From assembly GCA_021815445.1 (NCBI GenBank), contig JAKAGM010000001.1:787710-851709 (forward strand): 64,000 bases of DNA, read 5' to 3'. Below, one piece after another: positions 8,581 to 54,407 of the stretch; within the stretch, counting starts at the first letter, position 1, and every line of letters starts with the position of its first letter. The notes below the pieces were generated by a model. The model was not told where the DNA came from and did no database searches. It saw only the letters and a program-made list of their open reading frames with translations. The DNA comes from a bacterium. GTDB taxonomy: Bacteria; Patescibacteriota; Patescibacteriia; UBA10025. Position numbers and translations under genes: made by a program.

Positions 8581-9547
8581 CGTCTACGGAACAATACCTA
8601 TTTCAGAACCGGTCGCTATTAATATTATCAATAGCCCGGCAATGCAGCGATTGAAAGGCATCGACCAAGGGGCGTACAGAAAACCTTTTTTTCCGGGCAC
8701 CCCGACGAACCGTTTTGACCATTCTGTCGGAGTATTTCTTCTTTTGCGGATATTCAAGGCACCGCTTCTGGAACAGATTGCGGGCTTGATCCACGATGTG
8801 TCCCATTCAGCGTTCTCACATGGCATTGAATATATCCTCAAACAAGGCAATGCGAAAACCCAGGGGCACCAGGACAATATTCACAATGACTTCGTGAAAA
8901 ATTCGGAAATCACCGGCATACTTTCGAGGTATGGCATGAATGTCGATGACATACTCGATGACTCGCGCTTCCCTTTGAAAGAAAATGATCTGCCCGATAT
9001 ATGCGCAGATAGGATCGACTATACTCTGCGCGACGGGGTTTCATATGGCGAACTAACTATTAGAGAAGCGAAAGAAATCTTAAGTTCGCTTTCGACGGTG
9101 AACGGCAGGTGGATATTTGCCGACTTTGCTCATGCGCGGAATTTTGCGCAATTTTATAATAAGCTGAACGGAGACTATTGGGCAGGCATAGAATCGGCTG
9201 TCATGTTTCATACCGTAGGCGAGTACATTGCCCATGCGTTACAAAAGCACTATATTGAACTTGAAGATTTGTATACGACTGACCAGGAAGTGTTTAATAA
9301 AATCGAACCTCATCTTAAAAATGATGAGTGCGCGCAATTGTTGCATGATCGCATGAATCACCATATAAACTTTATAAACTCTCCCGGACACTTTGACACG
9401 CGTGTCATCATTAAATCCAGAGCTATTGATCCGCTCTGCTGCCATGACGGGGCCGTGAAGCGCGTATCCGAGATTGACCCGTACTGGACTCAGACTGTTC
9501 AGGAGGAATCAAAGCCGAAAGAATATTTCATCAAATTTGAACAATAG
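8564..9547 (+). CDS. HD-domain phosphohydrolase of the dGTPase/SAMHD1-like dNTP triphosphohydrolase family
   Basis: N-terminus YGTIPISEPVAINIINSPAMQRLKGIDQ...NRFDHSVGV, HD motif LIHDVSHSAFSH, and DRIDYTLRD. It overlaps rdgB by 17 nt. Confidence 0.65.
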   Translation: MKYRDNVYGTIPISEPVAINIINSPAMQRLKGIDQGAYRKPFFPGTPTNRFDHSVGVFLLLRIFKAPLLEQIAGLIHDVSHSAFSHGIEYILKQGNAKTQGHQDNIHNDFVKNSEITGILSRYGMNVDDILDDSRFPLKENDLPDICADRIDYTLRDGVSYGELTIREAKEILSSLSTVNGRWIFADFAHARNFAQFYNKLNGDYWAGIESAVMFHTVGEYIAHALQKHYIELEDLYTTDQEVFNKIEPHLKNDECAQLLHDRMNHHINFINSPGHFDTRVIIKSRAIDPLCCHDGAVKRVSEIDPYWTQTVQEESKPKEYFIKFEQ

Positions 9548-9568
9548 GCTAAGAACAATGCAGAACAC

Positions 9569-10408
9569 ATGACGCATCCGGTCATCCAACACATTCTTGC
9601 ACGGCGCGGAAAGCATGTTCCGCAAAATGACGGCCGAACCATCGGCTTGGTTGCCTACGGCGGGTCGATGTCGGGGGTAATCGGCGGAGGCGCGATGATA
9701 GCACTGGAAGAACTCGGCTTGAGTCACGCATTTGACCATATCATATGCAACTCTGCGGGTTTCGCGAACGCTTCCTATCTTCTCGCGGACTCCACTCATA
9801 TTGGCGCCACCATTTACTTCGAAGAGTGCGCGAGCCGCAAATTTATTAATTTTTTCCGTTTTTGGAACATCGTTGATATCGATTTTCTAATTGACGTCAT
9901 GCGCACAAAAAAAATATTGCACGTTGACCGCATTGCATCGTCTGAAACCAAACTTTATGTCGAGTTACATTCCACTCGGACGCATAAAGAGCAATATCTC
10001 GAAGTACACACCATTCCTCCCGACCACTATTTCGAGATTATGCACGCGGCAACTGCCATCCACTATTTGCACCCCGGCGGCAGTTTCATTAACGGTATCC
10101 CGTACATGGATATCCGGCCGTACACACGTTCCAAACACATCCAACAGGCCCAGGCGCTTGGCTGTACGGATATTCTGGTCATCTACAACCGGATCGACCA
10201 ACAAGGACGAGACGTATCCCCTTCCGAACAGATTGTCGAGGTGCTTCCGGACAAAGATTGGCAGGTAAAGCCGTATGAGCAAAACCCCGAGATCCTGCGT
10301 GCCGGATACCGCAACATGGGCCGGCGGATTAAACAAATTTTTGGAGTTGATGGAGGAATATCGTTTAATATGTTCACGGAAAACGACATAGTCGATGTCC
10401 AGGTTTAA
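9569..10408 (+). CDS. Patatin-like phospholipase family protein (putative)
   Basis: Glycine-rich AYGGSMSGVIGGGAM oxyanion-hole-like region and an x-S-x-G nucleophile elbow (CNSAG). The catalytic Asp could not be located with confidence. Confidence 0.45.
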   Translation: MTHPVIQHILARRGKHVPQNDGRTIGLVAYGGSMSGVIGGGAMIALEELGLSHAFDHIICNSAGFANASYLLADSTHIGATIYFEECASRKFINFFRFWNIVDIDFLIDVMRTKKILHVDRIASSETKLYVELHSTRTHKEQYLEVHTIPPDHYFEIMHAATAIHYLHPGGSFINGIPYMDIRPYTRSKHIQQAQALGCTDILVIYNRIDQQGRDVSPSEQIVEVLPDKDWQVKPYEQNPEILRAGYRNMGRRIKQIFGVDGGISFNMFTENDIVDVQV

Positions 10409-10442: not shown

Positions 10443-11237
10443 ATGAAGTTCCCTCGTCCAATTCGCACACTACGAAACAATGTATCGCCAGAAACTATTG
10501 CAAGTCAATTTCTCTTTCACGAATTCCTAAAAATCTTTCGCGACATCAGGGATCCACTCTTTCGACAGAGAATAAAAAGATCAATCTATCGGTTTAAAAA
10601 ACGCGACGGAGAACGCCACTACTGGCAGTTGGTAGCGGCAATTGCAGAGGGGTTGCGCGTCAAATGGGTGTATCGGTTACTTACCGATACGAGCTATAAA
10701 TGGAATCTCGAGGTGAGTGCGATAAAAAACCTCACAATGACTGGTTTTAGCCCGCTGGCAGTTGATAAAATTATACACCGATGCGGCCGTGATTTTTACC
10801 GATTCGCAGACTACTACCGCGCACATCTTCACTTCTTTAAAAAGTACATGCCGAACTTACAGCCGCGCCCCGAACGCGACATGCACCCCGTTTTCGTATT
10901 TTGGGATTCAGGGCAGAGACGACTGCGACTCTTTGACGGCATGCGACGCACAACGCTTGCCGCAATACACGGCAAAAAAACTATTAAGGCATTCGTCGGC
11001 TATCCCGTTAGAAAAGGCAAGTCCATGGTTAATGACGACAAGATTCACTTTTTCAAACTTTTATACAGAAATTCTTCAAAAGATGCCGCCACATTCAGGG
11101 CATTCACACGCGTGGGTAAAGAGATTGTAAAACAATCCCGCAACAGCGTAGAAGTGTTTACAACGACACTTAAGCCTTGGTCGGATATCCATGAAAAAAA
11201 ACTCACAAAGGCAATTATCGACAAAAGGGGGAGATAA
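10443..11237 (+). CDS. Hypothetical protein with a C-terminal ParB/Srx-like (DGxxR) motif
   Basis: 264 aa, basic. LRLFDGMRRTTLAAIHGKKTIKAFVGYP resembles the ParB N-terminal or DGQHR-type motif. Confidence 0.4.
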   Translation: MKFPRPIRTLRNNVSPETIASQFLFHEFLKIFRDIRDPLFRQRIKRSIYRFKKRDGERHYWQLVAAIAEGLRVKWVYRLLTDTSYKWNLEVSAIKNLTMTGFSPLAVDKIIHRCGRDFYRFADYYRAHLHFFKKYMPNLQPRPERDMHPVFVFWDSGQRRLRLFDGMRRTTLAAIHGKKTIKAFVGYPVRKGKSMVNDDKIHFFKLLYRNSSKDAATFRAFTRVGKEIVKQSRNSVEVFTTTLKPWSDIHEKKLTKAIIDKRGR

Positions 11238-11553
11238 TTTTTACCATCGCATTTACGGAATGGTAAAAGTAATTCCACCGGGTAAAGTCGCTACCTACGG
11301 TCAGATCGCCGCGCTTGCCGGATCTCCCCGCGGCGCCCGGATGGTGGGATGGGCGCTCCATGTACTCAGTGATGAACAACTCGTACATACTCCCTGGCAC
11401 CGCGTTATTAACCGCGAGGGACGGATTAGCACAACCTGTTTCGAACACACCTGCGACGAGCAAGCATTGCTTCTTAAAAAAGAGGGTGTTATAGTACGAA
11501 AAAGCAAAGGTAACTACTGGATTGACTTAAAACAGTTTCAGTGGAAAGTGTAG
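11191..11553 (+). CDS. Alkyltransferase-like protein (ATL; MGMT/Ogt DNA-binding domain with Trp replacing the active-site Cys)
   Basis: VATYGQIAALAGSPRGARMVGWALH...PWHRVINREG. PWHRV replaces the PCHRV motif of O6-alkylguanine-DNA alkyltransferases. The start is uncertain and could be the downstream MVKV. Confidence 0.7.
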   Translation: MKKNSQRQLSTKGGDNFYHRIYGMVKVIPPGKVATYGQIAALAGSPRGARMVGWALHVLSDEQLVHTPWHRVINREGRISTTCFEHTCDEQALLLKKEGVIVRKSKGNYWIDLKQFQWKV

Positions 11554-11567
11554 ATATAAGAATGCGG

Positions 11568-11638
11568 GCGGGTATCGTATAATGGTAATACCACAGCTTT
11601 CCAAGCTGTTGCCGGGGGTTCGATTCCCCCTACCCGCT
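11568..11638 (+). tRNA. tRNA-Gly(UCC), no encoded CCA
   Basis: Cloverleaf: acceptor GCGGGTA/TACCCGC, D-stem GTAT/ATAC, anticodon stem ACAGC/GCTGT with loop TTTCCAA, T-arm GGGGG-TTCGATT-CCCCC. Confidence 0.85.
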
Positions 11639-11792
11639 AATCAGCCTTACCAATAACTTTATAATATTCCCTGCCCACAGATCCCTTCAGACCAAGATGT
11701 TGGGGAAATCGAAGGACAGAAGTGAGCAAGGAATGAAATGACGAAGCGAACGTCGGCGGGGTGCCGGTGGCACGCCGCCGCTGTCCAGGACC

Positions 11793-11810
11793 CGATTCCC
11801 CCTACCCGCT
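11793..11810 (+). repeat. Direct repeat of the tRNA-Gly(UCC) 3' end (18 nt, cgattccccctacccgct)
   Basis: Exact copy of tRNA nt 11621..11638, about 170 nt downstream. A third partial copy (ccctacccgct) is at 12053..12063. Confidence 0.6.
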
Positions 11811-12233
11811 TTGTGGATCCAAATAATTCTACTGTTTCTTTAGTTGCGAGAGTACTAGCCGAAGATAGAGAATCGAAGGGGTGCGAACGGGGCAGAGCGA
11901 CTCAACTGCTTGAGTCGCGGCCGTGAGCACGGGTCGATCATGTTCTGAAGGAACGCGAGACCCAGGGAGAGTATGCATATACCACGCTGCCCAGGAAACG
12001 ATTCTTGAGTTCGATAAAATCTAACGGAACGAGACCCCGTTGAATAGCGGGACCCTACCCGCTCAGCGAATTTGCTCGCTGAGCGAGGCTCGCTACAAGC
12101 GTTAATTAATTCTACTCTCTTGAATATGTGCCCGAAAGAAATGGCATCTGTTTTGTTGGTATTTGGTTAAGTTTGAAATACATCCTTCGACTGACAATTT
12201 ATTAAATTTATCTGAATTATTTGTGAATATTAA

Positions 12234-12262
12234 TTGACAAAAAGCTGTTTTTTTGCTATACT
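12234..12262 (+). promoter_or_regulatory. Consensus sigma70 promoter of paralog A
   Basis: TTGACA, a 17-nt spacer, then TATACT. It is followed by a 26-nt A/T-rich leader with no SD. Confidence 0.6.
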
Positions 12263-12288
12263 GCATACATAATAAATAAATAAAAACT

Positions 12289-13767
12289 ATGTCCGACAAT
12301 ACTATCCAACAATGGCTTGCCCAAGCTCGAGCGGCCGGTTTTTCTGATGTGCAAATTACTGCACAGCTGAAACAGCAAGGCTGGGGCGATGATCAAATTC
12401 AAAAACTGGTTGGCGGCGCAACGTCACCTTCGGTAGCAACAGTTACCGATAGGAATCAAGTCGTTCCCTCTGATACTATTCCAGATGTACTGGCGTTATT
12501 TAAGCAAGCATGGGAAATATACAAATCCCGTATCGGAGCATTTGTTGTTATCGGCCTTATTTTTCTTTTCATAGAGGGACTATTGTACTTTGTGAGCTTC
12601 TTACTTGTCGGCGGAACTGCCGTGCTTGGCATCGCTTCATCCGCTACAGTATTTAAGGGCAACACGACTGCACAAATAGCCACCAGCGTTCTTGCTATCA
12701 GTTTCGCTTCCGTAGCTGTTACGGTAATTTTCGGTTTTTTCCTCGCTTGGGTGTGGTCAGCGTTGATCCATACAATTCACACATACAAAGAAAAGATTGA
12801 CCTCGGCACGATAATGTCCCGGGCGTTTAAGACGATGATTCCGCTTTGGTGGGTTTCAATGCTGTTGAGCTTTTTTGTCTCAGGTGCGAGTTTTCTGCTT
12901 TTTATTCCCGGCATCATTTTTGCCGTTTGGTTTTCAAATGCGCTTTTCTTGCCCGTCACTGAAGGTACGCGCGGCATGCAGTCACTGCTGAGAAGCAAAG
13001 AATATGTTCGAGGCGCTTGGTGGGGAGTGCTGGGCCGCCAGCTCGCCTTTGGATTGCTGGTCGGTGCGGCTTTCTTCGGCTTATTCCTCGTTTTAGGCCT
13101 GGGGACGATTTTTCTCCGTAATACTGCCGGAGCTATCGGGGCCATGGCGTCCATAGCGGTAACATTTGTCTACCTTGCAATTACTGCGCTCGTCATGCCT
13201 TTCGGACTTTGCTATTCATATGCTCTTTACAGCGGTTTAAGGGCATATAAAGCACGGGCTGCTATCGATACACAGCAAACAAAGAAAGCCGGGCTGATTA
13301 TCACAGCAATTGCGGGATGGCTGGTCATTCCTTTAATAGGAATTGGAATTGTTGCGTTTGTTACCAGCATGACTAACTCATTCCTGCCTGCATCGACTGG
13401 ATCAAATAATCTTTTTAACTCAAACAGCTCATACAACTTCAATACCAATAGTTTGAATAATACAAACAACAGTACAACGAGCGCAGGAAACAATGACCAA
13501 AGAAAAGCTGACCTCAATACCATTTCTGCCGCACTGGTGAAGTATTTCAATCAGCATTCCGCATATCCCACGGCCCTAACAGATATTGCGACATTGCTTC
13601 CAAACAGCAAGGTGCCCGCCGATCCATCTGATAATACGAGTTATTATTACTACATGAATTCCGACGGGACATTCGATCTCTGCGCGCTGCTAGATGATCC
13701 AACGACATACGTCAAGGAATACTGTATAAAGGGTGCCGCTGATGGAACGATCGCCATTCAACAGTAG
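12289..13767 (+). CDS. Multi-TM membrane protein, paralog A. It has a conserved N-terminal cytoplasmic domain and a C-terminal type IV pilin-like domain.
   Basis: N-terminus MSDNTIQQWLAQARAAGFSDVQITAQLKQQGWGDDQI is shared with the ORF at 14814..15602. About 8 TM helices follow. The C-terminus QRKADLNTISAALVKYFNQHSAYPTALTDI...VPADPSDNTSYYYY...DLCALLDD fits the pilin/pseudopilin globular-domain pattern. Confidence 0.7.
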   Translation: MSDNTIQQWLAQARAAGFSDVQITAQLKQQGWGDDQIQKLVGGATSPSVATVTDRNQVVPSDTIPDVLALFKQAWEIYKSRIGAFVVIGLIFLFIEGLLYFVSFLLVGGTAVLGIASSATVFKGNTTAQIATSVLAISFASVAVTVIFGFFLAWVWSALIHTIHTYKEKIDLGTIMSRAFKTMIPLWWVSMLLSFFVSGASFLLFIPGIIFAVWFSNALFLPVTEGTRGMQSLLRSKEYVRGAWWGVLGRQLAFGLLVGAAFFGLFLVLGLGTIFLRNTAGAIGAMASIAVTFVYLAITALVMPFGLCYSYALYSGLRAYKARAAIDTQQTKKAGLIITAIAGWLVIPLIGIGIVAFVTSMTNSFLPASTGSNNLFNSNSSYNFNTNSLNNTNNSTTSAGNNDQRKADLNTISAALVKYFNQHSAYPTALTDIATLLPNSKVPADPSDNTSYYYYMNSDGTFDLCALLDDPTTYVKEYCIKGAADGTIAIQQ

Positions 13768-16160: not shown

Positions 16161-16277
16161 ATTGATCGTGGTGGGCCAGGTGGGAGTCGTCCGGTCATTC
16201 GACCGGACGCCCCGTCGCATGACGGGGCGAACCCATAATACTCACACCTGTTGTGCCGAACCAATGATTTACCTTTT

Positions 16278-17540: not shown

Positions 17541-17570
17541 GACGGGATTTCCCTTCGGGCCGGGGCTCAC
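17541..17570 (+). repeat. GC-rich repeat, copy a (gacgggatttcccttcgggccggggctcac), related to the tRNA-Gly(GCC) 3' end
   Basis: Same family as 18685..18713 and 19268..19296. It shares its 5' core with the reverse complement of the tRNA-Gly(GCC) 3' end. Confidence 0.6.
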
Positions 17571-18601: not shown

Positions 18602-18684
18602 TTTATGAAGTATATCGTATTACGATATAATAGTACTCTAAAAAGCCACCATTGGCAATAGTGGGCTTGTGGACATCTTTTAGG

Positions 18685-18713
18685 ACGGGATTCCCCTTCG
18701 GGCCGGGGCTCAC
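18685..18713 (+). repeat. GC-rich repeat, copy b
   Basis: gacgggattccccttcgggccggggctcac, followed by the hairpin CGCCCCGC-ggta-GCGGGGC. Confidence 0.6.
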
Positions 18714-18787: not shown

Positions 18788-19186
18788 TTACTCCCAAGGG
18801 AATTTAACTACTCGATGTATCTCCTCCAGAAAGTAATCTGGTACAACTTCCGATTTCGGCATAGTATACAAACATGCAGTTTTGACCACTGCTCCTTTAC
18901 TTTCTAGGTATTGTTTCGCTACAACCAAGCTCTTTCCAGTTTCAAGCATATCTTCTACAAGTAGGACACTTTTCCCGTCAATATTTTCCTCTATTACTGT
19001 TTTTACTTTACGTTGATCAGATACTTTTTTTACCGTCAGACAATACATTTCCTTCACATTAAGATAACTTGAAAGCAGCCGTGCGGGAATGAGACCTCCT
19101 CTAACAACCCCAACAATAATGTCGGGGGAGTACTTAATTTTACTTCGAAGTACCTTAATTTCGTTTTCAAGTTCATGCCATGTCAT
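18788..19186 (-). CDS. Type I phosphoribosyltransferase domain protein (small purine PRTase-like)
   Basis: PRPP-binding motif VLLVEDMLETGKS; 132 aa. Confidence 0.75.
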   Translation of the reverse strand: MTWHELENEIKVLRSKIKYSPDIIVGVVRGGLIPARLLSSYLNVKEMYCLTVKKVSDQRKVKTVIEENIDGKSVLLVEDMLETGKSLVVAKQYLESKGAVVKTACLYTMPKSEVVPDYFLEEIHRVVKFPWE

Positions 19187-19267
19187 GGTTTACTATATTA
19201 TTTTTTGAGGACTGGATTCCCCCTCCGGCGAGCCTCGCTTTGTCCGCTGTAAGCGGACAAAGCGGGA

Positions 19268-19296
19268 GACGGGATTCCCCTTCGGGCCGGGGCTCA
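19268..19296 (+). repeat. GC-rich repeat, copy c. It includes a 17-nt exact match (agcgggagacgggattc, 19254..19270) to the reverse complement of the tRNA-Gly(GCC) 3' end. A degenerate copy is at about 19208..19232.
   Basis: gtaagcggacaaagcgggagacgggattccccttcgggccggggctcac. Confidence 0.6.
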
Positions 19297-19475
19297 CGAT
19301 CGCCTCCGGTCTTCGACCCTGGGGTCTCAGACCCGAAGGGCGATATCGTTCGCCCTGCTCATCCCGACGCGACGCAAGCAGTTGCGTCGCTTCTCCTCCC
19401 GATTACTGGTTACTCCTTACAACGAGAATCTAGGAAACTTTTTTTACACTAATAGCTCCATCGAGCTGAGCTCGA

Positions 19476-19550
19476 TGGAGCGGGAGACGGGATTCGCACC
19501 CGCGACCTCTTCCTTGGCAAGGAAGCGTTCTACTACTGAACTACTCCCGC
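19476..19550 (-). tRNA. tRNA-Gly(GCC) with encoded CCA
   Basis: Revcomp GCGGGAGTAGTTCAGTAGTAGAACGCTTCCTTGCCAAGGAAGAGGTCGCGGGTGCGAATCCCGTCTCCCGCTCCA. Confidence 0.9.
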
Positions 19551-19559
19551 AAACGTTGT

Positions 19560-20290
19560 GTTCAATACTATCATTCAACTGACTGGCCCTGCAAATAAAC
19601 GCCCTACTACTGTCAGCCAAAGGCTGATCCGCCTCTGGCGGAAACTGGCGACGAGTTCCTTCACCCCGCGACAGCGGGGTTCAGGATGCTCGATTTTCTA
19701 GCTGCTCGCAAAGCTCGCAGAGAAAATCGGCATTTCAGTCCGGAGACCTGCCCCGCAAAAGCTCACGCAATGAGCGATGCGGGGTCTTCCGGGGTGCTTC
19801 CGATGGGTCGCACCCGTCCCGCAAGGCGGGACCCACTTCGCTACCTCGGTAACGGGTAATCTCTCTCTCATGCCGAGGGCCAGAACCCCGCTAGTCAGCG
19901 GGGCAGGTCTCCCAGGCGACGCAAGGAAAGGAGATCCCTCGTTTTACTCGGGACGCTCAATTTTTCATCTGCTTGTTCCACTCGCAGGAAAAATTGGCGT
20001 TTTCAGTCCGGAGTTTATCCCGCACATGTGCCTGGGGCCAGAATTGAACTGGCGACGCAAGGATTTTCAGTCCTTCGCTCTACCACTGAGCTACCCAGGC
20101 ATTAACCCAGACACATATGCGGGACTCTACCACTGAGCTACCTCGGCGGAAACCAAACCTCGGCAAAAGGGGAGGATATATTTTTAAAGTTCTTCGCGGC
20201 ATTTACCCCGCACCTGGAACGCAGTGACATGGTGCGGGGCCACTGAGCTACCTCGGCGGAGAATGACTTCGGCATGAGAGAGTACTACAG
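19560..20290 (-). repeat. Mosaic of tRNA-derived fragments and short repeats surrounding an intact tRNA-Phe
   Basis: tRNA 5' halves GCCGAGGTAGCTCAGTGG occur in minus sense at 20130..20147 and 20240..20257. A Phe-like 3' half ending CCTCGGCA is at about 19872. A 32-nt repeat CTCCGGACTGAAA..CTGCGAG occurs twice (19724..19755 and 19981..20013). 16-bp inverted repeats lie at 19863..19878 and 20267..20282. Confidence 0.5.
20029..20100 (-). tRNA. tRNA-Phe(GAA), no encoded CCA
   Basis: Revcomp GCCTGGGTAGCTCAGTGGTAGAGCGAAGGACTGAAAATCCTTGCGTCGCCAGTTCAATTCTGGCCCCAGGCA. Confidence 0.85.
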
Positions 20291-20298
20291 ATCCAACT

Positions 20299-20375
20299 TG
20301 GTGGGCGACTCAGGAATCGAACCTGAGACCTCGTCATTATCAGTGACGCGCTCTAACCATCTGAGCTAGTCGCCC
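20299..20375 (-). tRNA. tRNA-Ile(GAU) with CCA, in the 16S-downstream spacer
   Basis: Revcomp GGGCGACTAGCTCAGATGGTTAGAGCGCGTCACTGATAATGACGAGGTCTCAGGTTCGATTCCTGAGTCGCCCACCA. Confidence 0.9.
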
Positions 20376-20666
20376 ATGTAAGAGGATTCAATTGTTAAAG
20401 GCAGGAAAACAAAAAAACTACAGATAGTAGTGTACGGCTTCGATGCATCTACGGCAAGTGGATAGCATGATATCTGTAGGGTAGTCTCATGAAACAACTT
20501 TGACGTGGTAAGAATATTCCTCAATCGAGCCATTCTTAATGTTTCGATATGTAGTTTCACTACACCATAGTGGGGCATCTCTCTTTACGTAATAAAGGGA
20601 TGTGTCCCACGCGACCCTCGTAACGGATACGCGTTATGCGTTTTCCGTCTCTAGGTAATCTCCCTA

Positions 20667-22162
<1,496 letters not shown>

Positions 22163-22613: not shown

Positions 22614-23276
22614 TCAAGTGCCGGATAATCGCTTTCTACGCCGCGCATGGGCTTTCCTCCAGGCGGCTATTTTCTCATGGTTGCCGGCCAAAAGCACGGG
22701 AGGGACCCGTTTTCCGTTGAATACCGGAGGCCGGGTAAACTGGGGGTATTCGATGTAAGTGAGCGACCCTGAAAACGATTCGTCCTGAGTGGCTTCCGCG
22801 TTACCGATGACTTTTGGTATAAGTCGCGACACTGTCTCTGTTACCGCCATAGCGGGTACTTCTCCACCGGAGAGGACATATTGCCCGATAGAGAGTTCTT
22901 CATCAACATACCGTGAAACACGCTCATCAAATCCCTCATACCTGCCGGCGATAAGAACGAGCTGGTCGAGCTTTGCGTAGCGTGCCGCAATCCGCTGGGT
23001 AAAGAATTTGCCCTGTGGCGAGAGAAGGACGATTCGGCGACGTTTCTTTTTAGGGATGCGACGGAGCATGCGAACTATAGGCTCAACTTTCAAAATCATG
23101 CCGGGCCCGCCTCCGTATGGCCTGTCGTCAACTGTATGGTGTTTATCAGTAGTTTGGCTCCGGATATCGTGAATATGGATGGAAATCAATTTCTTCTTCA
23201 GCGCTTTAGCAATCAGCGTTTCATGGAGAAATGAGTCAAACAAATTGGGGAAAATGGTTAGGATGTCGAATCGCAT
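22614..23276 (-). CDS. trmD: tRNA (guanine37-N1)-methyltransferase TrmD
   Basis: MRFDILTIFPNLFDSFLHETLIAKA...RPYGGGPGMIL...LLSPQG...LIAGRYEGFDERV. Confidence 0.9.
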   Translation of the reverse strand: MRFDILTIFPNLFDSFLHETLIAKALKKKLISIHIHDIRSQTTDKHHTVDDRPYGGGPGMILKVEPIVRMLRRIPKKKRRRIVLLSPQGKFFTQRIAARYAKLDQLVLIAGRYEGFDERVSRYVDEELSIGQYVLSGGEVPAMAVTETVSRLIPKVIGNAEATQDESFSGSLTYIEYPQFTRPPVFNGKRVPPVLLAGNHEKIAAWRKAHARRRKRLSGT

Positions 23277-23358
23277 ATACGTTTTAAGAAAAAACAAAAA
23301 CCGCACTTGGAGTATACCATATGTGCGGCTTTTGCGTCCCTTGTTAAGGACAGAAAGT

Positions 23359-23706
23359 TTAGAGCTTGAGATCATCAACTGCTGAAGTATCCTCTTCAGC
23401 GACTGACTGACGATCGTGCGACGGGGCTGAACCGCGATCCTTCCGATAACCTTCCGGTTCGTAGATCTTGAGGTTCACCCGAGCGTGGTTCTTTGCACCG
23501 ACGACGCGGAGAAGTGTCCGGAGAGACTTCGCGGTCTGGCCTTGGCGGCCGATGACCTGTCCGAGGTCCTGGGGATTGACCTTGAGCGTAATGAGTACGC
23601 CCATCTCGTCAACCGTCCTGTCCGAGCTCACGTCTGCCGGGTTGTCGACCAGCGCTTTTACCACATATTCAACAAACTCCTGATCATTCATCGTTTCCTT
23701 CGTCAT
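23359..23706 (-). CDS. KH-domain RNA-binding protein (KhpA/YlqC-like, UPF0109)
   Basis: KH GxxG motif VIGRQGQTAKSLRTLL. Position between rpsP and trmD is conserved. Confidence 0.75.
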   Translation of the reverse strand: MTKETMNDQEFVEYVVKALVDNPADVSSDRTVDEMGVLITLKVNPQDLGQVIGRQGQTAKSLRTLLRVVGAKNHARVNLKIYEPEGYRKDRGSAPSHDRQSVAEEDTSAVDDLKL

Positions 23707-48275: not shown

Positions 48276-49004
48276 TTGTCAACTCTCAACATCTATGTTA
48301 ACTTAGCATATCTTAATCAATGGAGTAAACTGAGAGTAGATATGCCAACACCAGAATACTACACCCCTTCAGTAGACGAGTACCGGGTCGCTGAAGAGAT
48401 AATGACGGAGGAGCAAAAACGCGACAGTGACGAGCGGGTGCGCGCCTTTGCAGAATCCAAACCAAACCGCTTGAATGAGAAAACCGGGACCCTGCTCCAT
48501 CCTATTGCAGAGCAACTCATTGAATTTGAGAATCTCCCGTCTTACGCGGAGCAGCATGGTTTCACGCGGAAACCCGAGTTCCATTTCACCGTTATCAGCA
48601 ATCGCTCCGGAAAGATAGTGAAAGAGAGGCTTGGTCAACTCCCGGATGATGAGCGACGGCAGGCCGTCCAGCGTATTAACGAAGCTGCCCAGAAAGTAGA
48701 TTGGTCCATGAAGTCGGGAGAGCTCCGGCGCGTGATAAAAGACTACGTAGTAACAAATGATAGGGACGATGAAATATCCCGCGAGCGGAGGGAAAGCATC
48801 ATCCAGCTTCTCGACATCCCGGGAATAGCAGAGTTCTACGCCACGCTGAATGAAGTCCTCGGCACCGCCATCGAGCCGCCTCCCGCCCATATTACGCTTT
48901 ACAGCACCAGCTCCGACCCTAAGAATATTTCTCGCGGCATCGGGATAGAGTCCCAAGCCGAGATGGACGGGTTGCACCCTGAGCCGGTGGACCTCAAAAC
49001 ATAA
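48276..49004 (+). CDS. Hypothetical protein
   Basis: 242-aa ORF with no recognisable motif. The start is uncertain. Confidence 0.4.
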   Translation: MSTLNIYVNLAYLNQWSKLRVDMPTPEYYTPSVDEYRVAEEIMTEEQKRDSDERVRAFAESKPNRLNEKTGTLLHPIAEQLIEFENLPSYAEQHGFTRKPEFHFTVISNRSGKIVKERLGQLPDDERRQAVQRINEAAQKVDWSMKSGELRRVIKDYVVTNDRDDEISRERRESIIQLLDIPGIAEFYATLNEVLGTAIEPPPAHITLYSTSSDPKNISRGIGIESQAEMDGLHPEPVDLKT

Positions 49005-49214
49005 CTTCAATCTCACCATCCTGAGGAGGCCGTGTCTCCTGTCGCGACCAACGAAGGATCCCGACCCGCAGTCGCCAGGCGAATCAACCTCTTCCTGCGC
49101 GGCGTATGTTTGAGCCCCGCACCATCTGATGGTGTGGGGTGAGTTTGCGCCGCGACGTCCTTTTCCCGCCACCTTTATGTCAAACCATGGGGGCGGATCC
49201 CGCCTATACGGCGG

Positions 49215-49275
49215 TGACTTTTCTCTCCACTTTTCTTTGGACGAGCAAAGAAAAGTGGAGCCCCTCCGGAGGGCA
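49215..49275 (+). repeat. Structured repeat element, copy 2 (14-bp perfect hairpin ctccacttttcttt/aaagaaaagtggag plus GC hairpin)
   Basis: cttttctctccacttttctttggacgagcaaagaaaagtggagcccctccggagggc. Confidence 0.55.
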
Positions 49276-49403
49276 ACTGATGTGATCATCCCCTATTTTT
49301 TCGTTAGTTACGCTTGACCAAACTAATGTAATACCCTAAGGTAATAAGCCAAACAAAGGAAATTGGACTTTTTACAACTCGAGACATATAGGGAGAATCG
49401 AAC

Positions 49404-52983: not shown

Positions 52984-53358
52984 ATGTCTGATGATAAAAA
53001 GGGCGCAAAACAGCCTTCACCGACTGCTCAGGATGGGAAAAAAGAGTCTGCCCGGGAACCGCTTCCTGAGTTCAGGCCGGGCATGACAATCCGTGTCCAC
53101 CAAAGAATCCTCGGCGGTGAAAAGGAACGTACCCAAATATTCGAGGGTATGGTCATCGCGCGGCGCAGAGGAACTTCACAGGGAGCCACGTTTACCGTCA
53201 GGAAAATATCCGACGGTATAGGTGTTGAACGCATCTTTCCCTTGCACTCCCCGATCATTAAAAAGATTGAGCTGGTCAAAAACGTCAAGATCCGCCGCGC
53301 CAAACTTTACTACCTGAAGGACTACAAGAAACGGCTTAAGGAAGTGCCGATCAAGTAG
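52984..53358 (+). CDS. rplS: 50S ribosomal protein L19 (with N-terminal extension)
   Basis: [60 protein letters not shown]. Confidence 0.9.
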
Positions 53359-53601: not shown

Positions 53602-53860
53602 GATAGAATTCACCAAGGTACGCTAAAAGTGCAGGAATCCCACCGAGAGCACCAAGGGCAACTAATCCCGTTCCGCTATACGGAACGAGGATCTACGATC
53701 ACCGAAGGCGATTGGGACTCAGGTGGGTTCGAGCGGTATCCGCCTTTGCGGATAACGAGCAAACTGCTTTGCTTGCGACCGCGAGAACGGGCGGGCGATG
53801 TGAGCGCGAGCGAACCTGCTCGCCCAGGATAGAGCGTCTCGTTTACACCATAATCGATGA

Positions 53861-54210: not shown

Positions 54211-54407
54211 AACCAAGGGCCCTTAGCTTCCGCCAGCGGCGGACCCGCCTTTGACGGGCATTTGGGTCGAGTCAACAAGCGAACAGAACTGCTTCTGTTC
54301 GCGCGGGACGAGACGGGCTAAGCGATGTCTGGCGCAGCCAGACAGCGAAGCCCCGAAAGAGCGCCGCGTTTGTACCTTTGAATACGAATAGAATTGAATC
54401 CCTTTAT

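Follow-up and report, generated by a model that had tools for sequence, protein, structure and literature searches.

Gene order and genomic context

The interval analyzed here, positions 19560-20298, lies in a 64-kb stretch of DNA (the window) from a Patescibacteria genome of about 880 kb with a GC content of about 50%. The relevant genes are on the minus strand, in the order trmD (22614-23378), 16S rRNA, tRNA-Ile(GAU), the interval, and tRNA-Gly(GCC). The interval holds an intact tRNA-Phe(GAA), which is nested in the remains of an outer tRNA-Phe paralogue, together with two more partial tandem copies and at least six GC-rich palindromic hairpin inserts. The non-functional tRNA copies are termed ghosts. 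The intact genes are the following.

20668..22162, minus strand: 16S rRNA gene (Rfam RF00177, 1439.7 bits), unlinked from 23S
20299..20375, minus strand: tRNA-Ile(GAU), intact, CCA encoded (ARAGORN and Rfam)
20029..20100, minus strand: inner tRNA-Phe(GAA), intact, acceptor GCCTGGG/CCCAGGC, A73, no encoded CCA (ARAGORN; Rfam, 72.2 bits)
19476..19550, minus strand: tRNA-Gly(GCC), intact, given for context (ARAGORN and Rfam)

The boundary of the inner tRNA-Phe is 20028/9-20100, depending on the caller (ARAGORN, Rfam). It forms a cloverleaf with a GAA anticodon and A73, and its Rfam score is reached over the full-length model; an earlier note on this DNA had already recognized it as intact. It is identical at 72 of 72 positions to the corresponding gene of the related genome L089 and at 70 of 72 to that of L082, the two changes forming a compensatory T-stem pair (labels L003-L097 denote sequences from related genomes, labels L099-L111 viral contigs from IMG/VR). 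This tRNA-Phe is the sole functional gene within the interval.

According to TrmD, the closest relatives are Patescibacteria, several of them named Kerfeldbacteria, and even the best are only about 72-74% identical. The 16S rRNA genes of relatives with nested ghosts show 81-93% identity (L082 and L089, 92.6%; L097, 81.5%). Homologues of a PRTase were tried as a second anchor for closer relatives. With about 72% identity at best and a family that occurs in many groups of the candidate phyla radiation (CPR), they are uninformative for this purpose. In the relatives, the gene order is trmD-16S-Ile-Phe, followed either by tRNA-Pro (L003, L006) or by tRNA-Gly(GCC) and tRNA-Leu(UAA) (L082, L083/84, L089). 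The window keeps the Ile-Phe-Gly...Leu order. Judged from these comparisons, the ancestral order in this clade is 16S, tRNA-Ile, tRNA-Phe, tRNA-Gly, tRNA-Leu.

The earlier note had remarked on the missing tRNA-Ala and 23S genes. They are indeed absent behind 16S, and Rfam has no match to large subunit rRNA in the window. That they were to be expected is wrong: the order in the relatives is 16S-Ile-Phe-Pro or 16S-Ile-Phe-Gly-Leu, and none of those examined has a 23S gene at the 16S locus. Because the relatives share this order, the absence reflects the normal unlinked rRNA layout of the clade. Unlinked rRNA operons are common in Patescibacteria and other phyla, and 16S followed by tRNAs without 23S, as in the window and all relatives examined, does not differ from them. 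This is the ordinary part of the locus.

A promoter scan found a promoter-like site (22617-22589) only upstream of 16S, and the same scan found no terminator-like site on the coding strand before tRNA-Gly. On balance, we regard the interval as the probably transcribed spacer of a conserved 16S-Ile-Phe-Gly(-Leu) cluster of Patescibacteria (CPR, Kerfeldbacteria-like). The rplS gene (L19), normally the operon partner of trmD, is found at 52984-53358, 30 kb away beside a tRNA-Leu/Val/Ala cluster, and trmD directly precedes 16S.

Short repeats beside an rRNA gene are a classic site of assembly error, and the earlier note had named a collapsed repeat as an outcome that would reduce the interest of the locus. 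However, an independent contig of 877 kb in ENA is identical over 19000-20700, which excludes a local misassembly. In addition, the flanking genes are held in several assemblies, and orthologous structures occur in at least five other genomes from different studies. The probability of an artefact from a collapsed or chimeric repeat is considered negligible.

Anatomy of the ghost copies

A 748-nt stretch covering this region has a minimum free energy (MFE) of -332.6 kcal/mol and is far more structured than shuffled sequences (z = -9.75). Its components, in the direction of the minus strand, are as follows.

20267..20282, minus strand: leader arm CTCTCTCATGCCGAAG of the outer tRNA-Phe, with a pseudo-acceptor GCCGAAG; inverted repeat pairing with 19863-19878 in the MFE and centroid folds
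20240..20257, minus strand: 5' ghost copy 1, GCCGAGGTAGCTCAGTGG, tRNA-Phe positions 1-19 (exact copy)
20206..20239, minus strand: H1 hairpin CCCCGCACCATGTCACTGCGTTCCAGGTGCGGGG in the D-loop of ghost copy 1 (fold; element comparison with L083/L084)
20148..20165, minus strand: duplicated leader TGCCGAGGTTTGGTTTCC, homologous to 20258-20274 (sequence comparison)
20125..20147, minus strand: 5' ghost copy 2, outer tRNA-Phe positions 1-24, with GCCGAGGTAGCTCAGTGG exact at 20130-20147 and extending to TAGAG at 20125; 23 of 23 nt identical to the ancestral-type tRNA-Phe of L006
20106..20124, minus strand: E2 left arm TCCCGCATATGTGTCTGGG, pairing with the 3' acceptor strand and trailer of the inner tRNA over 19 bp with two G.U pairs (duplex -46.6 kcal/mol, z = -6.6)
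20018..20028, minus strand: E2 right arm (trailer) CATGTGCGGGA (repeat and duplex analysis)
20000..20013, minus strand: outer anticodon arm A, CTCCGGA and loop CTGAAAA; the stem variant CCGGA/TCC(T)GG is common to L082 and L089 (sequence comparison)
19954..19999, minus strand: E5 hairpin copy A, inserted behind the outer anticodon loop (fold -16.3 kcal/mol, z = -4.0)
19935..19953, minus strand: TCCCGAG, 3' strand of outer anticodon stem A (6/7 bp), in a hairpin with CGAGGGA (fold)
19915..19927, minus strand: 3' ghost part 1, TCCTTGCGTCGCC, positions 39-51, with the anticodon-stem strand TCCTT of the inner-gene type (repeats)
19886..19914, minus strand: 29-nt insert in place of the T-arm sequence AGTTCAA, consisting of a TGGGAG relic and an E3-like hairpin CCTGCCCCGC..GCGGGG; homologous to CTGGAG+E3 of L089
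19863..19885, minus strand: 3' ghost part 2, TTCTGGCCCTCGGCA (19871-19885, positions 59-73, ancestral acceptor strand), and trailer arm TGAGAGAG (repeats)
19833..19850, minus strand: 5' ghost copy 3, ACCGAGGTAGCGAAGTGG, degenerate with 3 mismatches; begins tandem unit B (pattern match)
19792..19832, minus strand: E6 hairpin GTCCCGCCTTGCGGGAC and hairpin GGGTGC..GCACCC (fold); in L006 and L093, a member of the E6 family stands in place of the ghost tRNA-Ile T-arm
19751..19784, minus strand: E3 hairpin CCCCGCATCGCTCATTGCGTGAGCTTTTGCGGGG (z = -4.9); family found in L083, L089 and L093
19687..19745, minus strand: outer anticodon arm B (19733-19745) and E5 copy B (19687-19732) (repeat, fold)
19643..19686, minus strand: stem TCCTGAA-[CCCCGCTGTCGCGGGG]-TGAAGGA (orthologous to L082) and ghost variable region with T-stem 5' strand CTCGTCGCCAGTT (comparison)
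19613..19642, minus strand: E1 double hairpin TCCGCCAGAGGCGGATCAGCCTTTGGCTGA at AGTT|CA, where the ghost Phe T-loop is joined to the ghost Gly D-loop (fold; 32/32 identical in viral contig L101)
19587..19612, minus strand: ghost tRNA-Gly D-loop and anticodon-arm relic CAGTAGTAGGGCGTTTATTTGCAGGG (direct repeat; L089 layout)

All sequence features listed in the earlier note are found again in this anatomy, at the coordinates given there and beyond what chance would produce. Its two 5' half copies are exact matches to GCCGAGGTAGCTCAGTGG, and its third, truncated one is the copy with three mismatches at 19833-19850. Including the real gene, this pattern has four matches, with 0.02 expected from shuffles. 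The Phe-like 3' half with a T-arm insert reads TCCTTGCGTCGCC, 29 nt, and TTCTGGCCCTCGGCA (19871-19927). The terminal inverted repeats (20267-20282 and 19863-19878) are perfect over 14 nt and match at 15 of 16 positions overall. The repeat reported as 32 nt is present twice but is longer, about 60 nt: it starts with CTCCGGACTGAAA and comprises the anticodon arm and the 46-nt hairpin (20013-19954 and 19745-19687).

The outer and inner tRNA-Phe copies are distinct alleles, differing by 2 bp in the acceptor stem and 2 bp in the anticodon stem. The tRNA-Phe genes of the outgroups L003, L006 and L093 have the ancestral-type acceptor GCCGAGG/CCTCGGC, and the same acceptor is kept by the fragments in the window. 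The hypothetical joined exons of the outer copy would read GCCGAGG...CCTCGGCA. The inner gene is nested in this copy right after position 24 of the D-arm. Because the leader TGCCGAGGTTTGGTTTCC is repeated, ghost copies 1 and 2 are tandem duplicates which include the leader. The 3' piece is a chimera, since the anticodon-stem strand of its part 1 is of the inner type and the acceptor strand of its part 2 is of the ancestral, outer type. According to the comparison with L089, TGGGAG in the 29-nt insert is what is left of the 3' strand of the outer anticodon stem; 15 nt of this insert are complementary to 19742-19756.

Tandem units A and B both hold an anticodon arm and an E5 hairpin. Unit B is the more decayed of the two. 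It opens with 5' ghost copy 3, after which come three hairpins, anticodon arm B together with E5 copy B, the stem-hairpin, and a T-stem 5' strand which reads GCCAGTT directly before E1. The E5 copies differ at 15 of 46 positions and have the same fold, with five compensatory pairs, no one-sided change, and no broken pair.

Coding capacity of the fragments

The earlier note had considered a split or permuted tRNA locus, and a functional split, permuted or multi-intron tRNA-Phe, with its pieces joined as RNA in the archaeal or a new bacterial way, would account for two features: the acceptor strands of the 5' halves and the 3' half are complementary, and the inserts are located in the D-loop, the anticodon loop and the T-loop, as in archaeal multi-intron tRNAs. 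The arrangement itself argues against it: the pieces keep a collinear order around an intact tRNA-Phe, the 3' piece is a chimera, and the T-arm has been destroyed (the outer copy in the window lacks the 7 nt AGTTCAA). ARAGORN, even with its threshold relaxed, makes no tRNA call on the window pieces after they have been joined in silico. The intron mode of ARAGORN finds nothing at the default threshold; with relaxed settings it yields only spurious tRNA-Arg calls on the opposite strand, and overall the relaxed runs with the intron option give only spurious low-score calls on either strand.

Rfam searches of the window at the gathering threshold and of 19000-20700 at E<=10 report three tRNAs only, sub-threshold antisense matches to Plastid-ycf2 and to miRNAs being meaningless. 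At E<=10, there is no match to Intron_gpI, Intron_gpII, group II D1-D4, tmRNA or RNase P RNA. The inserts are 17-46 nt long and thus too short for self-splicing introns, which need more than about 200 nt. By inspection, no bulge-helix-bulge (BHB) motif is present at the insert borders: the hairpins are flush with the tRNA sequence and there are no 3-nt bulges round a 4-bp helix. The outer tRNA-Phe copy of the window is dead, and a functional tRNA assembled from these pieces is highly improbable.

Nested tRNA genes in related genomes

What stood up among the suggestions of the earlier note is nesting by insertion into paralogues of tRNA-Phe, with disruption by small inverted-repeat elements, as junctions are shared with relatives and the hairpins belong to dispersed families. 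The nesting junction GGTAGAG|TCC(C/T)GCA..[inner Phe]..CATGTGC(G/A)GGATA(A/G)ACTC(C/T)GGACTG is common to the window, L082 and L089/L095. In the distant L097, the 5' Phe ghost stops at the same GGTAGAG, and an E1-type double hairpin is found in the D-stem. A metagenome scan with the nested-Phe junction pattern gave one match only, a strain of L089. An outer Phe copy is absent in L083, L093, L003 and L006.

Other isotypes are affected as well. A tRNA-Ile is nested within an interrupted outer tRNA-Ile in L082, L083/84 and L097, with a 6-nt overlap at the boundaries in L082/L083 and a 7-nt gap in L097. Ghosts of tRNA-Gly flank the gene on the 5' and 3' sides in L082 and L089, and 3' ghosts of tRNA-Ile in which the T-arm is replaced by a GC hairpin occur in L005, L006 and L093. 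In the window, ghosts are also found beside tRNA-Gly(GCC), tRNA-Gly(UCC), tRNA-Ala and tRNA-Val.

Once the inserts are removed in silico, ARAGORN with relaxed settings calls a tRNA for the outer Ile copies of L083 (exact) and L082 and for the outer Phe copies of L089 and L082 (the latter with an 8-nt anticodon loop). Since their removal restores callable tRNAs, the inserts in these relatives are precise. At the outer anticodon loop, L082 has no insert, the window has E5, and L089 has another hairpin. The outer and inner T-stems are the same within each genome (GGCAG/CTGCC in L082; GCCAG/CTGGC in the window and L089), which points to gene conversion and would account for much of the conservation of the ghost D- and T-arms. 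Sequence turnover in a ghost can be seen between L089 and its near-identical strain L095: they differ at 19 positions in about 4.6 kb, of which 14 fall within 133 nt of ghost tRNA-Gly (L089 4965-5097) and 5 in the remaining ~4,500 aligned nt. The ghost-Gly part includes a 45-nt patch with a different hairpin in each strain.

The nested arrangement could also be read as the product of a mobile unit, formed by the inner tRNA and the 18-20 bp inverted repeats of E2, which would insert into the D-loop or anticodon region of the cognate tRNA, killing and replacing it; H1 and E3 would be internally deleted derivatives. Long inverted repeats surround the inner tRNAs and no others, and several further observations agree with such a unit. 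H1 has a 12-mer, CCCGCACCATGT, in common with the E2 arm of L082 and is found in D-loops of two isotypes in different genomes (30/32 identical between the Phe D-loop in the window and the ghost Ile D-loop in L083/L084). The outer and inner copies are distinct alleles, the 5' ghost of L097 ends at the same position, the outer tRNA-Ile of L083 is rebuilt exactly once the inserts are removed, and GIY-YIG nuclease open reading frames (ORFs) occur within the ghost tRNA-Ile region of L008 and, disrupted, in L083. On the other hand, Ile, Phe and Gly would each need a cognate cassette of their own, and no enzyme or homing site is known. The boundaries of the nested Ile genes are inexact, and the pairing in L097, between outer leader and inner trailer, is what a simple 5' partial tandem duplication would produce. 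Patterns for H1, E4 and E6 were not found in the viral contigs, and the single metagenome match to the junction is likewise unfavourable. We consider such a self-homing cassette distinctly unlikely.

In L008, the small GIY-YIG ORF (11722-12295) is situated between a chimeric pseudo-tRNA, which has an Ile 5' half and is called tRNA-Ser by ARAGORN, and an intact tRNA-Ile, with tRNA fragments around. In L083, the disrupted GIY-YIG ORF (9430-9700) between tRNA-Gly and tRNA-Leu was recognized by eye. These ORFs near ghosts may be linked to DNA breaks at tRNA genes. A GIY-YIG homing nuclease as the cause at the present locus was rejected, the motif scan being positive only in L008 and negative in the window.

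Leader-trailer helices and a possible role as RNA

The outer tRNA-like frame, the leader-trailer helices and the hairpins might be signals for processing of the 16S-tRNA transcript by RNase III, P and Z, or might have another role as RNA, and be under selection. This would fit the strong overall fold of the 748-nt region and the scan results, with a promoter-like site only upstream of 16S and no terminator-like site before tRNA-Gly. It would also fit the leader-trailer duplex of 18-20 bp, which is preserved in three genomes, L082 and L089 having orthologous arms, and which shows a C:G to U:A compensatory change as well as two G.U pairs. The strong conservation of ghost segments would fit too, as would the fact that the outer copies of the relatives are tRNA-like after insert removal.

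The duplex, however, is strong only round nested tRNAs, with z-scores of -6.2 to -7.9 for Phe, -2.4 for Ile of L082 and -3.8 for Ile of L083, and is about 0 for most other tRNAs of the same genomes. The only one of the latter below -2.9 is tRNA-Ile of L089, a gene with an E1 copy on either side. The idea that leader-trailer pairing serves processing in general was therefore rejected. Further points argue against selection for a function as RNA: in the window, the outer copy has been scrambled and cut short, and the four relatives named above have no outer Phe copy; the E5 stems vary only by perfect Watson-Crick double substitutions; E1 occurs also in phage intergenic DNA and in a group II intron; and the near-identical strains L089 and L095 show 14 differences in 133 nt of ghost tRNA-Gly. 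The balance of G.T and A.C mismatches in 31 hairpins, meant to separate constraint at the RNA level from constraint at the DNA level, is 9 to 4, which is not significant. A functional RNA architecture appears unlikely.

Hairpin families and their insertion sites

E1 (TCCGCCnnnGGCGGA-TCmGCCnnnGGCkGA) is a 30-nt double hairpin. All six of its copies in tRNA sequence interrupt the motif AG(T/C)T|CA, in three isotypes and four genomes, with no base lost or duplicated and no target-site duplication. The sites are between positions 55 and 56 of the Phe T-loop (window, L082, L089), between 12 and 13 of the Gly D-stem (L089), in the Ala D-stem (window, 54229), and in the Phe D-stem (L097); the motif occurs in both D-stems and T-loops. 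Past E1 in the window, the sequence continues with the D-loop of a ghost tRNA-Gly and not with the Phe T-loop. As L089 has one E1 in the Phe T-loop and another in the D-stem of a ghost tRNA-Gly, the Phe/Gly fusion in the window probably arose by deletion between two E1 copies.

An unbiased scan of IMG/VR viral contigs found E1 in 10 distinct places, once per contig, among L099-L111. The viral copies are mostly intergenic, usually just upstream of a ribosome-binding site, in contigs with about 37-45% GC. Contig L101 is identical to window 19613-19644 at 32 of 32 positions and has nothing else in common with it. The copy in L103 (390-419) falls within a group II intron, with the reverse-transcriptase ORF on one side of it and domain V on the other. 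Among cultured phages and plasmids, only chance partial matches to E1 were obtained.

E1, H1, E3 and E6 are found at several loci and in several genomes, and their presence or absence varies at the outer anticodon loop and the D-stem (window, L082, L089, L097). Within the window, both spacers and hairpins that are rich in GC are concentrated next to tRNA genes. A further family, E4, lies just behind tRNA-Gly(GCC).

19261..19420, minus strand: E4, a GC-rich element of ~100 nt with hairpin GCGACGCAA-CTGC-TTGCGTCGC ..., then the ghost tRNA-Gly 3' end GAATCCCGTCTCCCGCT (repeat)

E4 is found at window positions 19345-19390, 11890-11935, 53750-53800 and 54270-54320 and at 9775-9860 of L082. It is built from a hairpin with a CTGC loop (..AACTGCTT..), the sequence (C)GGGAnGA..GGGC..CGAT, and a second hairpin, and is always located in the D- or T-loop of a ghost tRNA, in the orientation of the tRNA. 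It has no Rfam match, and its copies are too divergent for a reliable covariance model; AACTGCTT occurs 8 times, with 2.1 expected.

Additional hairpins were observed elsewhere in the window. A cluster at 49100-49230, with CCCCACACCATCAGATGGTGCGGGG in CGCGGCG..CGCCGCG and an E1-like CCGCC..GGCGGGATCCGCC..GGCGGGA, falls in the supposed N-terminus of the ORF 48369-49289, the true start of which is probably further downstream. A double hairpin at 16188-16229 is right behind tRNA-Leu(UAA).

No transposase, integrase, RtcB or EndA was detected in a Pfam scan of 20 window ORFs, and there is no transposase or integrase among the neighbouring genes (16.4-29.1 kb). The palindromes have heads TCCGCC or CCCCGC and few copies in 64 kb, and no RAYT gene is among the 20 ORFs scanned. 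With respect to miniature inverted-repeat elements, the E2 unit has inverted ends of 18-20 bp. No target duplication is clear at Phe, and in L082 and L083 the nested Ile may be flanked by one, of sequence T(C/T)ACTG.

Ghosts and insertions at other loci

Downstream of tRNA-Gly(UCC), the window (11640-12130) has 3' ghosts GATTCCCCCTACCCGCT (~11794) and CCCTACCCGCT (~12055) and GC-rich elements including AGCGACTCAACTGCTTGAGTCGCG. Ghosts of the 5' type are found upstream of tRNA-Val(UAC) (53603-53860) and tRNA-Ala(UGC) (54211-54407). The Ala ghost is laid out as GGGCCCTTAGCT, an E1-type double hairpin, CATTTGG, an element of ~90 nt, and TAGAGCGCCGCGTTTG.., followed by 31 nt and the intact gene.

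A repeat of 30-36 nt, (GCGATC)GTGAGCCCCGGCCCGAAGGGGAATCCCGTC, occurs three times (17541-17570, 18684-18713, 19268-19297), its end being the T-loop and 3' part of tRNA-Gly(GCC). Each copy is in the spacer before a gene module, namely a PRTase, PadR with a 217-aa protein, and a PEP-utilising enzyme. These modules make up 3.1 kb between tRNA-Gly and tRNA-Leu, which are adjacent in L082, L083 and L089. This stretch looks like a serial insertion of gene modules at a tRNA-derived site.

Two observations concern the 16S genes of relatives. In L005, a group II intron D1-D4 fragment (12694-12773) is located just after a short 16S gene; for comparison, no group II introns were reported from complete genomes of Patescibacteria in a published survey. 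In L017, there is an insertion of ~300 nt within the 16S gene (10839-12665).

Proposed origin of the interval

On balance, we favour an origin of the interval as debris of partial duplication and recombination at tRNA genes, combined with tiny mobile palindromes and partly homogenized by gene conversion. Breakpoints of duplication or recombination would fall repeatedly inside tRNA genes. A breakpoint in a single-copy tRNA gene would be viable only if one intact copy stays, and since only such outcomes survive, 5' pieces are expected upstream and 3' pieces downstream of the live gene. The mini-palindromes would then invade the dispensable copies, the E1 target AG(T/C)T|CA being part of tRNA D-stems and T-loops. 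The palindromes (E1, E2/H1, E3, E5, E6), which enter loops and stems of tRNAs at precise positions, may promote further recombination, as in the E1 fusion, and gene conversion from the live gene would keep the ghost D- and T-arms alike. Tandem duplication is visibly active, in copies 1 and 2 (leader and 5' half) and in units A and B (anticodon arm and E5).

Several points weigh against this origin. The ghost segments are much more conserved than expected of neutral DNA: they are about 93% identical (a count by eye over aligned segments) although TrmD is only about 72% identical between the genomes, and ghost parts which have no donor in the live gene are conserved as well (CATGTGCGGGATAAACTCCGGACTG). 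The insert-free outer copies of L082, L083 and L089 are still called as tRNA by ARAGORN with relaxed settings, and in the helix that encloses the inner tRNA-Phe, there are G.U pairs and one compensatory substitution. No mobilising enzyme was found in the 64 kb analyzed of the ~880-kb genome. The nesting may have arisen from two partial duplications or from one self-insertion. Because the conservation of donor-less ghost parts and the helix round nested tRNAs stay unexplained by duplication debris with mobile palindromes, a role at the RNA level and a self-homing cassette are kept as alternatives.

The analysis removes a tempting misreading, as there is neither a bacterial split or permuted tRNA nor a missing 23S. 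Instead, essential tRNA genes are ringed by nested relics of themselves, into which mini-palindromes have been inserted at a defined tRNA motif, one of these palindromes being shared with uncultured viral contigs. This is a natural experiment in which an essential gene survives repeated disruption. If the elements are mobile and targeted to tRNA, they would be among the smallest site-specific mobile DNAs known and would explain error-prone annotation of tRNAs in Patescibacteria (e.g., the 'tRNA-Ser' of L008). If the shells are functional, they would point to an unusual tRNA maturation route in organisms with a reduced RNase repertoire. More speculatively, and with some doubt on our side, this CPR clade and its co-sampled viruses might host undescribed, tiny site-specific mobile palindromes at conserved tRNA motifs together with inverted-repeat-flanked, self-replacing tRNA cassettes, leading to 'Russian-doll' tRNA genes whose shells are perhaps co-opted for processing.

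Comparison with known systems

Archaeal split, permuted and multi-intron tRNA genes are found in Nanoarchaeum and Thermoproteales. The ghosts resemble them in the interruptions at the D-, anticodon and T-loops and in the GC-rich complementary leader and trailer. They differ in the bacterial host, the lack of BHB motifs, the collinear order, the presence of an intact isoacceptor gene, and a copy which cannot be reconstituted.

In Patescibacteria, group I introns interrupt tRNA genes at anticodon loops only; they are self-splicing and match the group I covariance model (PMC13011429). The present case has in common with them the phylum and interrupted tRNA genes missed by standard annotation. However, its inserts are 17-46 nt long, are also found in D- and T-arms, and have no group I match at E<=10. 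This was the only report found on interrupted tRNA genes in Patescibacteria, and it makes no mention of nested genes, fragments or hairpin inserts. Nested tRNA debris with mini-palindromes was not found described in the searched literature and is apparently an undescribed dynamic of ultra-small CPR genomes. Group I introns are far longer than the 17-46 nt inserts.

Integrated elements reportedly leave duplications of attachment (att) sites at the anticodon loop, T-loop or 3' end of tRNA genes (Williams 2002, Nucleic Acids Res). Similar features are direct repeats of tRNA 3' parts downstream of an intact gene and, at tRNA-Gly(GCC), the three 30-36 nt T-arm-derived repeats which separate gene modules absent in relatives. 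The Phe locus differs in having 5' fragments upstream too and in that the fragments are broken by hairpins; there are only 50-200 nt between the repeats, without an ORF, and no integrase among the neighbouring genes or the 20 ORFs scanned.

Repetitive extragenic palindromic (REP) sequences and REPINs are imperfect palindromes with a GT[AG]G head, present in hundreds of extragenic copies and associated with a RAYT gene. The window elements bear only a loose likeness to published REP/REPIN sequences (PMC3116915), with no GTAG-type head or RAYT transposase seen in the 64 kb analyzed, and few copies per 64 kb.

The likeness is greater to the mobile GC clusters and double hairpins of organelles. 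Yeast mitochondrial GC clusters are palindromes which favour recombination (PMC4478555), and double-hairpin elements of fungi and repetitive hairpin-forming elements of sponge mitochondria are known as well (PMC2800124). With these, as with REP/REPIN (PMC3116915), the window elements have in common that they are GC-rich (double) hairpins of 17-46 nt in several dispersed families. Further shared traits are that they are nested or merged, sporadic and lineage-specific at homologous sites, and present in spacers as well as RNA genes, that they are apparent recombination hotspots (the Phe/Gly fusion at E1), and that they are shared horizontally (E1 in viral contigs). In contrast to GC clusters, their host is a CPR bacterium with ~50% GC and not an AT-rich organelle, and in contrast to both GC clusters and REP, the inserts concentrate in tRNA-derived sequence, with the target AGYT|CA and, for E1, without target-site duplication. 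We thus rate the finding as a combination of known kinds, tRNA pseudogene debris and mini-palindromic mobile DNA.

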